Shown one piece after another: positions 9,875 to 15,129 of a stretch of DNA of 29,178 nt (position 1 is its first letter; every line of letters starts with the position of its first letter). Source of the stretch: Gammaproteobacteria bacterium (GTDB taxonomy: Bacteria > Pseudomonadota > Gammaproteobacteria > Natronospirales > REEB76). Location of the stretch: positions 1-29,178 of the forward strand of contig DASUXE010000113.1 in assembly GCA_036378075.1 (NCBI GenBank), given 5' to 3'. A program made the position numbers and the translations under genes. The notes beneath the pieces are model-generated. The model was not told the origin of the DNA, made no database searches, and was given only the letters and a program-made list of their open reading frames with translations.

Positions 9875-10642
9875 ATGGCGGCTTTAACCACCGTGATTGA
9901 TTTCATGGCTTCCATGAATTTTCTCGACTGGTGGCTGCTGACCGTTATCCTGGCACTTGCCGAGGTGTTTGTGTTGCGCGGCTGGTTGCTGGGACTTGCG
10001 ATCGCGACCGGCATCACCGGGTTTGTGCTGATGTTATTTCCGCAGTTGGCCTGGCCGTGGCAGGTGTTGATCTTCGGCGTCGTCGGTGTTGCCGGCATTG
10101 CCCGGCACTGGCGCAGGCGCGCAAAATCCGTTCCTGGTTCCGCACACAGCATGCAAGAGGACACCGTTATGAGCAGCTTTCATGATTTCGAGATCAAAAC
10201 AATTGACGGCAAAGCCAGGCCATTGAGAGATTTCAAGGGCGAAGCGGTACTGGTAGTGAACGTTGCCAGCGAGTGCGGCCTGACGCCCCAATACGCCGGG
10301 CTTGAACAATTGCAACGCGAATTCAAGGACCAGGGGTTCACGGTGCTGGGGTTGCCCTGCAACCAGTTCGGCGCCCAGGAGCCGGGCACCGAAGCCCAGA
10401 TCCAGCAGTTCTGCAGCACGAAATTTGACGTGAGCTTCCCGCTGACGAGCAAGATCGAGGTGAACGGCGCCGGCGCGCATCCCTTATATAAATGGCTCAA
10501 GGACCAAACCGGCGGTGCAGATATTCAATGGAACTTCGAAAAATTCCTGATCGGCAAGGATGGCCGGGTCATCAAGCGTTATTCGCCCAAAACCGTGCCT
10601 GAAGATGCGGGCTTGCGGGCTGACATCGCTGCGGCGCTGTAA
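9875..10642 (+). CDS. NfeD/YbbJ-like membrane segment fused in frame to a Cys-type glutathione peroxidase (GPx alone would be 10169-10642)
   Basis: Residues 1-83 are YbbJ-like ('WWLLTVILALAEV...WPWQVLIF'). From M99 the GPx motifs NVASECG, PCNQFGAQEPG and WNFEKFL appear. Internal SD AGAGGA at 10156-10161. Confidence 0.82.
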   Translation: MAALTTVIDFMASMNFLDWWLLTVILALAEVFVLRGWLLGLAIATGITGFVLMLFPQLAWPWQVLIFGVVGVAGIARHWRRRAKSVPGSAHSMQEDTVMSSFHDFEIKTIDGKARPLRDFKGEAVLVVNVASECGLTPQYAGLEQLQREFKDQGFTVLGLPCNQFGAQEPGTEAQIQQFCSTKFDVSFPLTSKIEVNGAGAHPLYKWLKDQTGGADIQWNFEKFLIGKDGRVIKRYSPKTVPEDAGLRADIAAAL

Positions 10643-10792
10643 ATTGCTGGTGTGTGGCTGCAAGCCTGAAATATCCGGACGGCAGGCACGGTCCTGAGCA
10701 GACAGGGCTCTCGTTGCATCCGCATCCGGCGTGCCCTGCCGGACGTATCTGATGTTGAAACCACCGACACCCGGTTTTGGGAAATAATCCAT

Positions 10793-11695
10793 ATGAATAC
10801 CATTTATTTCGTTCGTCTTGCGATAGCGGCGGCAGTACTCGCAACTTGCGTGACTGCTTTCGCGGCTGAGCCTCCGGCTGGCAGCGTGGTGACTGCTGTG
10901 CAGTCGCCAGCCTGGCTGGTGCAGGGCGGCCTCACCACCCCGCTCAAACCCGGTGCACTGATTGCGGACGGTGACAGTCTGCGCACCGGTAGCGGCGGGC
11001 GCGTGTATCTCGCGCTGCCTGAACACAGCATGGTTAAGCTCGGCGAAAACACCGAACTTGCCACGCCAGCGATGGACATGATGCACGATGCCCAGGGCAG
11101 CGTGTTCAAAGGCGCGCTGCATATTCTCAAGGGTGTATTCCGATTCACCACCGATCTGATCGGCAAAGCGCAGCGACGGCATGTCGACATCCAGGTCGGC
11201 ACGGCAACCATCGGCATTCGCGGCACCGATGTCTGGGGTCGTGCCGGCAGTGACGGCGATCTGGTGGCGCTGCTGGAAGGTAAAGCCGAGATGCTTGCAC
11301 CCGGTCACGCGATGATGATGATGGACCAGCCGATGCATTACATGATGATGCCCAAAACCGGCAGCATGCAGATGAACATGCCGGTTACGCATGCCAGGCT
11401 GACGGACTGGGCTGCGCAAACCGATGTCCGTTCCGGCGACGGCGTGTTGATCCGCGACGGTCACTGGGTCGTGGCGCTGATTTCATCCACCGACGAACGC
11501 GATGCCACACGCCTGATGCACAAACTCTCGGTGGCCGGTTATCCATCGGAAGACACCCCGGTACAGTTTCGCGGCAGGCAATGGTACCGGCTGGTGATCC
11601 GTCAGGTCGCCAGTTACCGGGATGCGCGTGCCCTGGCGCAACGCCTGGGCAAGTTGTATCCGCTGATGAATCCCTGGGTATTCAAGGCGCCCTGA
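10793..11695 (+). CDS. Secreted FecR-like domain protein with a Met/His-rich insert and a C-terminal SPOR-like domain
   Basis: Signal peptide ('TAFA-AE'). FecR-like 'GDSLRTGSGGRVYL...KLGENTEL...G.FRF...TATIGIRGT'. SPOR-like 'WVVALISS...KLSVAGYP...WYRLVIRQ.ASY.DA'. Confidence 0.75.
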   Translation: MNTIYFVRLAIAAAVLATCVTAFAAEPPAGSVVTAVQSPAWLVQGGLTTPLKPGALIADGDSLRTGSGGRVYLALPEHSMVKLGENTELATPAMDMMHDAQGSVFKGALHILKGVFRFTTDLIGKAQRRHVDIQVGTATIGIRGTDVWGRAGSDGDLVALLEGKAEMLAPGHAMMMMDQPMHYMMMPKTGSMQMNMPVTHARLTDWAAQTDVRSGDGVLIRDGHWVVALISSTDERDATRLMHKLSVAGYPSEDTPVQFRGRQWYRLVIRQVASYRDARALAQRLGKLYPLMNPWVFKAP

Positions 11696-13025: not shown

Positions 13026-14468
13026 ATGTCCGGTCAAACATTTCTGACGCTCTGGTCCAGCTCGCCCACGGTATCCGCCGTGATCTGGCTGGTGTTGCTG
13101 ATTGTCGTGTTGTACGTGGCACGCGAGCCGGCACACCAGCTGCTGCGGAATCTGGGCGGTTTTATCTATCGCGGGATGCGTCTGGCGGCAAAGGCTTTGA
13201 TGCGCACATCGGAGCGTCTCAATGAACGCAATCGCGAAGTCATGCTGGTGCAGGCGCGTGAACACCAGGTCCAGCGATTGCAGCGCGAGTTTGAAAGGGT
13301 GGCGGGGTATGTAAACCACGACCTGAGCGCCTACCCCGCACTCAATCGCCAGTTGAGCGAGATGGGCGCCCGGGTCGAGGAAGATTTCCAGCGCTCCGGA
13401 GAAGTGCCACCGATGCCGCCACCGTGGGTGGACGCGGTGAATTCCATCGCCAAGATTCCGGCTAATGGTGATCCCATGATCGGCACCATTCTGCGCAACG
13501 TGCAGGACATGCTGGACAAGTCCAGCAAGGATGTGGTCGGGGCGTACCGCAAGGCGGCAGGCAAGCGGCATGAATTGCTGCAGCGCATGCTGCCGATGTG
13601 GCGTTACATGAACCGCAAGCTGGAAAGCCTGGAAAAGATGTTCGCCGGACTCGGTGAACGGACCCAGAAGATCGACAATCAGATCGCCCGGCTTGAAGAG
13701 ATCATCGACGGCACTGATCATGTCGAGGAGACCCTGAAATCCTCGGCGGTGACCCAGTTCTTCGTCGCCACCCTGCTGCTTGCCATTACCATCGTCGGCG
13801 GCGTGATCAACTTCAACCTGATTGCCATGCCGATGTCCGAGATGGTGGGCGGGGCCAGCTATATCGGGCCGTTCCACGCTTCCGACGTGGCGGCATTGAT
13901 GCTGGTTGCGATGGAGGTGTCGGTCGGCGTATTCCTGATGGACTCGTTGCGCTTTACCCACCTGTTTCCGGCCATCGCAACCATGGAAGACAAGGTGCGC
14001 CGCCGCGTGTTCCTGCTGATGCTGGTGTTCCTTACCGTGCTGGCCTGCATCGAATCAAGCCTCGGCTTCATGCGCAATCTGCTGGCGGCCGACAAGGAGG
14101 CGCTGATTCAGCAGCTCGCCGGCGGTGCAGTTACCGCGAGCGCCGCGTTTCAGTATCGCTGGTTGCCGTCGCTGGCACAGATGGTGTTGGGCTTCATCCT
14201 GCCGTTCCTGCTCGCCTGGGCCGCGATTCCGTTGGAAATGTTCGTGCATTCCGGCCGCACGGTGAGTGGACTGGTCAGCTCATCGGTGCTGCGGGTCAGT
14301 GCATTTGGTTTGCGCCTGGTGGGGAACATTGTCGAATCCGCGAGCCGCTTGCTGATCGCGTTCTATGACACGCTGGTGTCACCCATGTTGCTGGCGGAAC
14401 GCTGGATTCGCGGCTTGCGCGCCAACCATGAGCAGAGTCACAAGCAGAACCAGAAGAAAACCGCGTGA
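13026..14468 (+). CDS. Uncharacterised polytopic membrane protein with a long coiled-coil domain
   Basis: 480 aa with SD GGGAG. One N-terminal TM helix, about 200 aa of charged helical region with a Pro hinge (VPPMPPPW), four further hydrophobic segments, then an amphipathic C-terminus. Confidence 0.8.
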   Translation: MSGQTFLTLWSSSPTVSAVIWLVLLIVVLYVAREPAHQLLRNLGGFIYRGMRLAAKALMRTSERLNERNREVMLVQAREHQVQRLQREFERVAGYVNHDLSAYPALNRQLSEMGARVEEDFQRSGEVPPMPPPWVDAVNSIAKIPANGDPMIGTILRNVQDMLDKSSKDVVGAYRKAAGKRHELLQRMLPMWRYMNRKLESLEKMFAGLGERTQKIDNQIARLEEIIDGTDHVEETLKSSAVTQFFVATLLLAITIVGGVINFNLIAMPMSEMVGGASYIGPFHASDVAALMLVAMEVSVGVFLMDSLRFTHLFPAIATMEDKVRRRVFLLMLVFLTVLACIESSLGFMRNLLAADKEALIQQLAGGAVTASAAFQYRWLPSLAQMVLGFILPFLLAWAAIPLEMFVHSGRTVSGLVSSSVLRVSAFGLRLVGNIVESASRLLIAFYDTLVSPMLLAERWIRGLRANHEQSHKQNQKKTA

Positions 14469-14478
14469 GGAGGTTGTC

Positions 14479-15129
14479 ATGCGCCGCCTGATCGTACTTT
14501 CCATTACCGCGCTGGTTCTGCTGTTCGCCGGTTGCAGCGAAACCGGCGGCAGGCACGCGCGCGCAGTGTACGTGCTGCTCGACGTGTCGCAGAGCTACAG
14601 CAACAAACTCGATGCCGCCAATTCGGTAATCAACTATCTGCTCGGTACCCTGGTGAGCGGCGATTCGCTGACGGTTGCCAGTATCGACAGTGCCAGTTTT
14701 ACCGAAAAGGACATCGTTACCAAGGTCACCTTCGACGATCGCCCATCCGTGGCCAATGAACAGAAGCGCGCGCTGCGCGCACGCCTGAATCAGTTCTTCA
14801 GCAACCTGCATCCCAGCGACAGGACCGATGTCAGCGGTGCCTTGTTGCAGGCGGCTCAGGATCTTGATGAAAGCGGCGCGGGTCACCGCTATATCCTCGT
14901 GTTCTCGGATCTGGAACAGGATCTGCCGAAAGGCTACGTGCGCAAATCACGCCTGCCTCTCGACGGCACCCAGGTAATTGCTGTGGACGTGACCAAACTG
15001 CATTCGGACAACGTCAATCCGCAGAATTACCTTGACCGGCTCCAGCACTGGAAACAGGTGGTCACCAAGGACGGCGGTCAGTGGCTGGTGGTCAACGACA
15101 TGAACCACCTGGACCGGATATTCAACTGA
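14479..15129 (+). CDS. vWA-like (MIDAS) domain lipoprotein
   Basis: SD GAGGAGG and lipobox LFAGC (C19). 'VYVLLDVSQSY' gives DxSxS, followed by 'RTD' and 'ILVFSD'. Starts 10 nt after the upstream stop. Confidence 0.8.
   Translation: MRRLIVLSITALVLLFAGCSETGGRHARAVYVLLDVSQSYSNKLDAANSVINYLLGTLVSGDSLTVASIDSASFTEKDIVTKVTFDDRPSVANEQKRALRARLNQFFSNLHPSDRTDVSGALLQAAQDLDESGAGHRYILVFSDLEQDLPKGYVRKSRLPLDGTQVIAVDVTKLHSDNVNPQNYLDRLQHWKQVVTKDGGQWLVVNDMNHLDRIFN

Follow-up and report, generated by a model that had tools for sequence, protein, structure and literature searches.

The window analysed here is a stretch of 29,178 nucleotides from a gammaproteobacterium of the order Natronospirales (assembly GCA_036378075.1, contig DASUXE010000113.1, forward strand), and it carries a gene for a predicted exported protein of 300 amino acids (aa) in which a FecR domain is followed by a SPOR domain. 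In one clade of this FecR-SPOR family, to which the protein belongs, methionine and histidine have replaced other residues in the last strands of the FecR fold and in neighbouring strands, and have been kept across the clade. We propose, tentatively and with slightly less than even confidence, that these residues form a soft-metal site, most likely for Cu(I), within the fold of a periplasmic protein that would be associated with peptidoglycan. An initial annotation of the gene had described an orphan FecR-like protein with a 12-Met insert and a peptidoglycan-binding SPOR tail. We rate as the novelty the clade-specific Met/His recoding inside a widespread, uncharacterised FecR-SPOR family.

The FecR and SPOR domain calls of the initial annotation were borne out by both Pfam and fold comparison. 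Pfam assigns FecR (PF04773) to residues 61-166 with 42.6 bits, against a cut-off of 24, and SPOR (PF05036) to residues 223-286 with 29.1 bits, against a cut-off of 21. The AlphaFold2 model, for which 71 homologs were the input, is confident throughout, with a mean predicted local distance difference test score (pLDDT) of 91.4 and a predicted template modelling score (pTM) of 0.85. Residues 58-213 of the model form a twisted beta-solenoid of the FecR/CJM type, which VIA-align matches to the CCSSD of PupR (6ovk, chain residues 111-251) with Z 15.6 over 139 residues and to the periplasmic domain of a Bacteroidales anti-sigma factor (4m0n) with Z 15.7; Foldseek returns the same type of beta-solenoid with an E value of 3e-6. 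A short helix connects the solenoid to the second domain, and two of its residues are kept family-wide, T210 in 142 and W206 in 104 of 151 family representatives, together with Asp or Glu at 211. Residues 224-300 match the SPOR domain of RlpA (6i05/6i09) with Z 10.3 and a root-mean-square deviation of 2.1 A over 75 residues. Further SPOR fold matches are DedD, DamX, FtsN and CwlC, and the family profile picks up the SPOR sequences of FtsN and DamX. Lower-ranked matches to CutA (Z about 6) align to the SPOR region, whose alpha/beta fold is a common one. The high pTM suggests that the SPOR domain packs against the FecR domain. In PupR the periplasmic module is described as a CJM domain (110-238) joined to an STN domain by an 11-residue linker that contains a helical turn (PMC7186176).

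The FecR domain is present, yet three defining features of FecR-type anti-sigma factors are lacking: the anti-sigma domain with its membrane helix, the STN domain, and linkage to a sigma factor and a transducer. In the Pfam scan only FecR and SPOR are matched, with no anti-sigma domain (DUF4880), and DUF4880 was likewise not found in longer members of the family; the same scan of E. coli FecR returns DUF4880, FecR and FecR_C. There is no match to PF16344 (FecR_C/STN), the C-terminal domain being SPOR, and neither the Pfam scan nor the model shows a second membrane segment. The possibility of a true anti-sigma factor was rejected given the lack of DUF4880, a transmembrane helix and an STN domain. 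Weak NCBIfam matches of the protein are to Lsa33 and LipL45.

Regarding the methionine-rich tract, the counts in the initial annotation are right: residues 167-196 hold 12 Met and 2 His, and a second patch, MDMMH, lies at 94-98. At the Met frequency of the ORFs (open reading frames) of this genome (2.3%), the probability of at least 12 Met in any one 30-residue segment is 1.6e-12, and about 9e-7 such segments are expected genome-wide. The word insert, however, does not fit. The tract runs through four predicted strands (165-168, 175-177, 182-187 and 193-197), all with pLDDT >90, and the segment 160-205 is about 46 aa long in Met-rich and Met-poor members alike (150 representatives, 50% clustering). 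The tract also falls inside the structural match to the PupR and 4m0n folds (58-213 of the model), the Pfam FecR model stopping short of the end of the structural domain. An insert or disordered linker was rejected on these grounds, as was a flexible segment of PcoE/SilE type, since the tract is part of the folded FecR beta-solenoid. Because the Met-poor segment has the same length and lies inside the FecR fold, the Met richness arose by substitution within that fold. The longest tandem repeats in the DNA are (ATG)4 and (ATG)3, and slippage or low complexity was rejected because the DNA has no longer ones and the tract is kept across homologs.

Comparison with Met-poor relatives identifies what was replaced. 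These relatives carry V, L, F or Y, or else R, E, T, S or P, at the Met and His positions of the tract, and in the first patch they have Leu at 94 and Pro, Gln, Arg or Thr at 96. Met has replaced hydrophobic residues at positions 94, 167, 175, 181, 184, 185 and 186, and Met or His has replaced polar, charged, Gly or Pro residues at positions 78, 96, 110, 169, 172, 176, 182, 192 and 194. At four of the latter (78, 110, 172 and 182) His was gained jointly with Met.

Conservation was assessed in 109 close homologs with 58-93% identity; the columns of the 71-sequence alignment average 56% identity. The Met residues are kept at 99% (M177), 96% (M96), 94% (M167 and M192), 92% (M181), 90% (M175), 87% (M184), 84% (M94), 83% (M186) and 78% (M194), and position 169, which is Ala in the query protein, is Met in 84% of the 109 homologs. 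The histidines behave similarly, with H182 at 94%, H110 at 88%, H172 at 87% and H78 at 78%. Conservation of 78-99% per position excludes slippage in a single lineage, which had been raised as a possible explanation of the tract. The enrichment persists in homologs down to about 40% identity. In the family as a whole, the Met-rich state occurs in 16 of 147 representatives, in one part of the tree, and these members stay in a 19-leaf clade once the Met/His-enriched columns are removed. The trees need 3-5 state changes, of which well-supported branches force only 2, and one member within the Met-rich clade (P0131) is Met-poor. Among species genomes the Met-rich form was found in 11 of 80; all 11 are uncultured Gammaproteobacteria, and one of them bears the label Arenicellales. 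Among the relatives of the window, all four same-genus and all ten sister-genus genomes have the ortholog (tallies that take in the unpublished genome G002), whereas searches of a third genus in this family found essentially none. The Met/His positions are strictly kept across the clade, and from these alignments we favour the view that they are under selection.

The mechanism that we envisage starts from an exported family protein with a beta-solenoid, a short helix and a small alpha/beta SPOR domain in place of STN. The clade recoded the last four solenoid strands and neighbouring strands by substitution and not by insertion, so that about seven hydrophobic and about nine normally polar positions became Met or His and were then strictly conserved. 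In this way it would have gained at least one site with thioether and imidazole ligands, for Cu(I) or for a different soft metal (Ag(I), for example), and the protein would bind, buffer or sense copper while tethered to the wall. It is well established that Met/His clusters in periplasmic proteins such as CusF, CopC/PcoC, PCuAC and CueO/CopA serve as Cu(I) ligands, and CusF, CopC, PCuAC and CopK place their Met/His ligands on beta-sheet scaffolds. Soft-metal binding is favoured because His was co-gained and conserved, because polar surface positions were replaced, and because a short motif, M-x-M-P-G-H, resembles that of a copper oxidase. An ORF scan of the genome turned up only one other protein whose Met density is comparable, a CopA-type multicopper oxidase exported by twin-arginine translocation (TAT), with 10 Met in 30 residues and encoded beside CopB on a different contig, C175; its Met-rich stretch and the tract share the motif M-x-M-P-[GD]-[HM]. 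A more elaborate form of the proposal seems doubtful to us. In this form the terminal solenoid rungs would be a multi-Met/His Cu(I) site, and so a new copper-binding scaffold, whose metal occupancy may control the stability or release of a SPOR-bearing C-terminal fragment, coupling periplasmic copper to the wall without a sigma factor; the family would be an undescribed wall-associated class that keeps a self-cleaving Gly-Thr core.

Several observations weigh against a copper site. The gene has no linkage to cop, cus or cue genes, its neighbours being mnmG, glutathione peroxidase (GPx), an MBL-fold gene, rimO, leuS-lptE-holA or secDF according to lineage, and no copper genes were seen among the scanned window ORFs or the recurrent neighbours. 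The trait does not track CopAB, as CopB was found in only 3 of 41 related genomes. No Pfam or NCBIfam match and no sequence homology connect the protein to known copper-binding families. Roughly every second Met substitution falls on a hydrophobic position that faces the core and may be structural, and some Met-rich relatives (P0150, P0196 and P0267) have neither of the two tract histidines. PCuAC, present in 41 of 41 relatives, is non-discriminating for the trait, and CopC was not found in the distribution search. The tallies for CopB and PCuAC, as well as those for MsrP given below, take in G002, G015 and/or G023, and no sequence-level claim rests on these genomes. Two side observations concern the same genome: the CopA-CopB pair looks like an accessory copper-resistance module, to judge from the rarity of CopB in the relatives, and contig C65 (6762-7313, + strand) has a 183-aa ORF of no Pfam family with Gly/Met-rich repeats (8 Met in 30 residues).

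Other explanations of the same pattern have to be weighed against soft-metal binding. The Met-rich strands could instead offer a hydrophobic and malleable surface or core to a partner other than a metal, be it a protein, a molecule linked to a lipid or a ligand derived from peptidoglycan. This would resemble the Met-lined grooves of SRP54 or calmodulin, and the clade would have changed its ligand specificity and not its metal binding. The fold in question joins partner binding in anti-sigma factors, and in PupR both subdomains are required to bind the signalling domain of the transducer (PMC7186176); moreover, the residue replaced was hydrophobic in about half of the Met gains, and the invariant polar residues R117, T119, T120, R129, R143 and D146 suggest a binding or processing site independent of Met. 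A hydrophobic surface, however, would not be expected to come with conserved His co-gained at four positions, with Met/His taking over acidic or polar surface positions, or with a motif like the Met-rich stretch of the multicopper oxidase of the same genome, and the partner interface of PupR is the linker and the STN domain and not the last solenoid strands. We regard this explanation as unlikely.

The oxidant sink offered in the initial annotation, which would include a redox sensor, appears improbable. Surface Met would scavenge HOCl, H2O2 and chloramines and so protect the machinery of wall synthesis; cyclic Met oxidation is an established antioxidant mechanism, and the high density and conservation of Met are what such a role would call for. 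A glutathione peroxidase gene lies directly upstream here and in locus L020, and this adjacency had been taken as support for the sink. That support is weak: in the sister genus the two genes are separated by an S46 peptidase and rimO, and the GPx domain is probably cytoplasm-facing by manual inference. A regenerable sink would also be without its usual reductase, as the MsrP-type molybdoenzyme (PF00174) was not found in the source genome (81% complete), in any of four same-genus genomes or in any of five genomes of the sister genus that carries the protein (92-100% complete), some of these relatives being 96-100% complete. Nor does a sink explain the co-selection of His, and many of the Met residues face the core of a folded domain, which their oxidation would destabilise. 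Enrichment without a dedicated function, that is, tolerated compositional drift fixed in one lineage, is the least likely of the readings. Met can stand in for Leu, Val or Phe in beta-sheet cores, about 90% of the family representatives work without Met, and P0131 is Met-poor inside the Met-rich clade. Drift of this kind is hard to reconcile with Met positions that rank with the most conserved columns in the clade (up to 99%) in sequences that are unlike at 40-60% of the remaining positions, with polar, acidic and Pro positions that also became Met or His, and with a genome that is not Met-rich overall (2.3%).

Two further features bear on what the protein may do, a Gly-Thr motif in the FecR domain and the glycan-contacting residues of the SPOR domain. 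The residues R117, T119, T120, R129, R143, G144, T145, D146, W148 and T210 are near-invariant in the 151 representatives, with G144 in 147, T145 in 145 and D146 in 150 of them. Residues 143-146 thus read R-G-T-D, a candidate for the FecR-type self-cleavage site. E. coli FecR self-cleaves at G181-T182 (PMC8144685), and the self-cleavage site of FoxR is G191-T192 (PMC11637429). Equivalence of the Gly-Thr pair was placed through Pfam model coordinates, because the family profile aligned too weakly with E. coli FecR for residue-level placement. Counted back from the end of the Pfam FecR match, G144 is 22 residues away, and G181 of E. coli FecR is 21 residues from the end of its own match; because of this near-equal distance the family appears to keep the Gly-Thr motif of the anti-sigma factors. 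Self-cleavage may therefore be possible at Gly144-Thr145.

Regarding the SPOR domain, the profile alignment gives S231, W264 and R266 as the equivalents of S254, W283 and R285 of FtsN, and R266 is kept in 106 of the 109 close homologs. The position of FtsN Q251 is occupied by Ala228, which is Ala in 95 of the 109 close homologs and variable family-wide. In RlpA the corresponding beta-1 residue, Q270 (FtsN Q251, DamX Q351), contacts N-acetylmuramic acid and N-acetylglucosamine (MurNAc/GlcNAc), and this Gln is the sole glycan-contacting residue that is highly conserved among SPOR domains (Alcorlo et al., PMC6895207). Because it is replaced by Ala228, canonical recognition of denuded glycan should not be assumed. 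The SPOR tail of the initial annotation thus stands as a fold and as a profile match, and its septal glycan binding becomes uncertain; peptidoglycan association of the protein is predicted.

The features of the gene and its product are listed in Table 1. The N-terminus has a hydrophobic helix at residues 2-21 with an AxA-type site at its end, pointing to a Sec-type signal; a cleavable-type signal and the lack of an anti-sigma domain had both been noted in the initial annotation, and both hold. Reading the protein as a lipoprotein was rejected: Cys19 is present in only 3 of 109 homologs and is therefore not conserved, so the protein is not a lipoprotein. It is predicted to be exported, soluble and periplasmic. 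The + strand reading of the gene is right because Pfam matches, homologs and synteny all agree. On the opposite strand an ORF of 326 aa (10484-11464, -) overlaps the real 300-aa gene and exceeds it in length, and a gene caller choosing the longest ORF would take the wrong, antisense strand there. Upstream of the gene no promoter or terminator consensus was seen, the fold of the intergenic RNA is no better than that of shuffled sequences (z -0.71), and conservation is poor; an upstream regulatory element was rejected for these three reasons.

Table 1. Coordinates of the FecR-SPOR gene, of the segments of its product, and of the second Met-rich protein of the genome
Feature	Position	Strand	Basis or remarks
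FecR-SPOR coding sequence	10793..11695	+	ORF list and translation; 300 aa plus stop; Pfam; orthologs with conserved synteny
Signal peptide, residues 1-24	10793..10864	+	Hydrophobic helix 2-21 in model; cleavage site predicted from sequence
FecR/CJM-type twisted beta-solenoid, residues 58-213	10964..11431	+	VIA-align, Foldseek, Pfam FecR
First Met/His patch MDMMH, residues 94-98	11072..11086	+	M94 and M96 conserved in 109 close homologs
R-G-T-D motif, residues 143-146	11219..11230	+	Candidate FecR-type Gly-Thr self-cleavage site
Met/His tract, residues 167-196	11291..11380	+	12 Met, 2 His; last four strands of the FecR fold
Connecting helix, residues 200-210	11390..11422	+	Helix in model; W206, T210 and D/E211 family-wide
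SPOR-fold domain, residues 221-300	11453..11692	+	Pfam SPOR; fold match; FtsN/DamX profile matches
CopA-type multicopper oxidase with TAT signal and Met/His-rich stretch	C175 L102:1025-2875		CopB (L105) next

The FecR-SPOR family is large. A word-indexed search gave more than 3,600 homologs, and the best 120, almost all of about 300 aa with FecR and SPOR, come from uncultured Gammaproteobacteria. A HMMER search against 1.84 billion cluster representatives returned 4,805 matches at E<=1e-3 and 219 at E<=1e-30; the latter (50% identity clusters) are nearly all full-length. The ESM Atlas label of the matching clusters is 'FecR protein/SPOR domain-containing protein'. The species-representative genomes that carry the family belong to the Gamma- and Betaproteobacteria, and among them are those of the cultured Chitinimonas, Iodobacter, Andreprevotia and Fontimonas. 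It was found in at least 15 of 295 evenly drawn genomes of the class that are at least 90% complete (about 5%), a figure that is a floor, as eight candidates per genome were scored. In the literature we found no paper characterising FecR-SPOR proteins or Met-rich FecR folds. The combination of FecR and SPOR, which the initial annotation did not recognise as described, is thus common and automatically annotated, and it is correct that no experimental paper on it was found. Likewise, the protein is an orphan in having no sigma factor or receptor partners, and is none in having thousands of homologs. Two sets of paralogs were also observed. A genome of the same order has tandem FecR-SPOR paralogs beside rimO (locus L019, G031:C172, 5147-5980 and 6148-6996, - strand) with 33-36% identity to the query, and contig C275 of the source genome (L107:1315-2172, + strand) encodes an exported FecR-only paralog of 285 aa, without SPOR, which adjoins an S9 peptidase and whose weak matches recur in most relatives.

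Within the genus, the gene order is mnmG, glutathione peroxidase, FecR-SPOR, MBL-fold hydrolase and a membrane protein without known family. The sister genus has two inserted genes, an S46 peptidase gene and rimO, between the peroxidase and the FecR-SPOR gene, and in more distant Met-rich relatives the peroxidase and/or the MBL gene is still nearby. The MBL-fold gene is the most persistent neighbour and, by manual reading, its product lacks a signal peptide. In Betaproteobacteria the gene is Met-poor and divergent from leuS-lptE-holA, and in some Gammaproteobacteria it comes after secDF; across 80 related loci, the genes that recur beside it are leuS, lptE, holA, uvrD, secD and GPx. As the initial annotation had stated for the window, no extracytoplasmic function (ECF) sigma factor or TonB-dependent receptor was found among its scanned large ORFs, and there is no ECF sigma factor or TonB-dependent transducer among the recurrent neighbours of the 80 related loci either. 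No operon partner was identified, the neighbours being housekeeping genes that vary by lineage.

The peroxidase gene (9875-10642, +) begins right after the stop codon of mnmG and lies on the same strand as the FecR-SPOR gene, as it does in L020 (about 42% identity). Its product has an N-terminal extension of ~97 aa with three hydrophobic segments and then an Arg-rich stretch, followed by the GSHPx domain (102-209). The extension is conserved, with tblastn alignments in the sister genus spanning 238-254 of 255 residues. By manual reading the peroxidase may be membrane-anchored with its GPx domain toward the cytoplasm, because the domain comes after the positively charged stretch behind the three hydrophobic segments. 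Downstream in the window, 13026-14468 (+) encodes a predicted membrane protein of 480 aa, with no Pfam or NCBIfam family, that is 78-91% identical in related genera, and it is overlapped by an ORF at 14365-15129 (+) with a weak VWA_2 match just under the Pfam cut-off. A rimO-type methylthiotransferase gene (UPF0004, radical SAM, TRAM_2) adjoins the FecR-SPOR gene in three separate lineages (L013 10573-13014, L020 8137-9486 and L019 7092-8357) and does not adjoin it in the window.

So far the FecR fold has been known almost exclusively from the anti-sigma factors of iron uptake, in which it is the periplasmic sensor. Here it is joined to a cell-wall-binding fold, and the soluble, exported proteins of this type, for which no published function was found, number in the thousands. 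The Met-rich clade is a natural experiment, in which about sixteen positions of one scaffold have become putative soft-metal ligands, fixed over deep divergence. If the predicted Cu(I) binding is true, it would add a new structural class to periplasmic copper handling, of relevance to soil Gammaproteobacteria that mostly lack classical CopAB, and would give a handle on the function of the whole family. If no metal is bound, the clade would remain a clear example of Met enrichment under selection within a folded domain, and it would help to calibrate how reliable the annotation 'Met-rich means copper' is.

In comparison with known systems, the protein resembles several groups in part. With the periplasmic Cu(I)/Ag(I) proteins (CusF, CopC/PcoC, PCuAC, CopK, CueO/CopA/PcoA and PcoE/SilE) it shares export and dense, conserved Met plus His, as well as short motifs of the M-x-M and M-x-x-M-x-H types. 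It differs from them in having no sequence or fold homology to any and in lying outside copper operons, and the tract is predicted to be folded, whereas PcoE and SilE are disordered; as judged from sequence, the likeness is one of composition only. The SPOR proteins RlpA, FtsN, DamX, DedD and CwlC have the same RNP-like fold, and the FtsN residues of strand beta-3 (W283 and R285) and S254 have their equivalents in the protein; the difference is the Ala in place of the canonical Gln of RlpA, FtsN and DamX. Leptospira LipL45 and Lsa33 and the FecR partners of CHASE2 receptors likewise have a FecR fold behind a signal peptide and no anti-sigma domain, but they are without SPOR, and some are lipoproteins or encoded beside CHASE2 sensors, unlike the FecR-SPOR protein. 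The FecR/PupR/FoxR anti-sigma factors differ in having DUF4880 and a transmembrane helix where the FecR-SPOR protein has a signal peptide, in having STN/FecR_C where it has SPOR, and in their linkage to a sigma factor and a TonB-dependent transducer, which is not seen for the FecR-SPOR gene; in the literature we found no description of Met/His recoding of the last strands in proteins of this type. The twisted beta-solenoid of residues 58-213 is the same as that of their CCSSD, the succession of a solenoid, a short linker with a helix and a small alpha/beta domain is that of PupR (PMC7186176), and the family keeps a Gly-Thr dipeptide at what appears to be the position of the self-cleavage site of E. 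coli FecR and FoxR (PMC8144685, PMC11637429).

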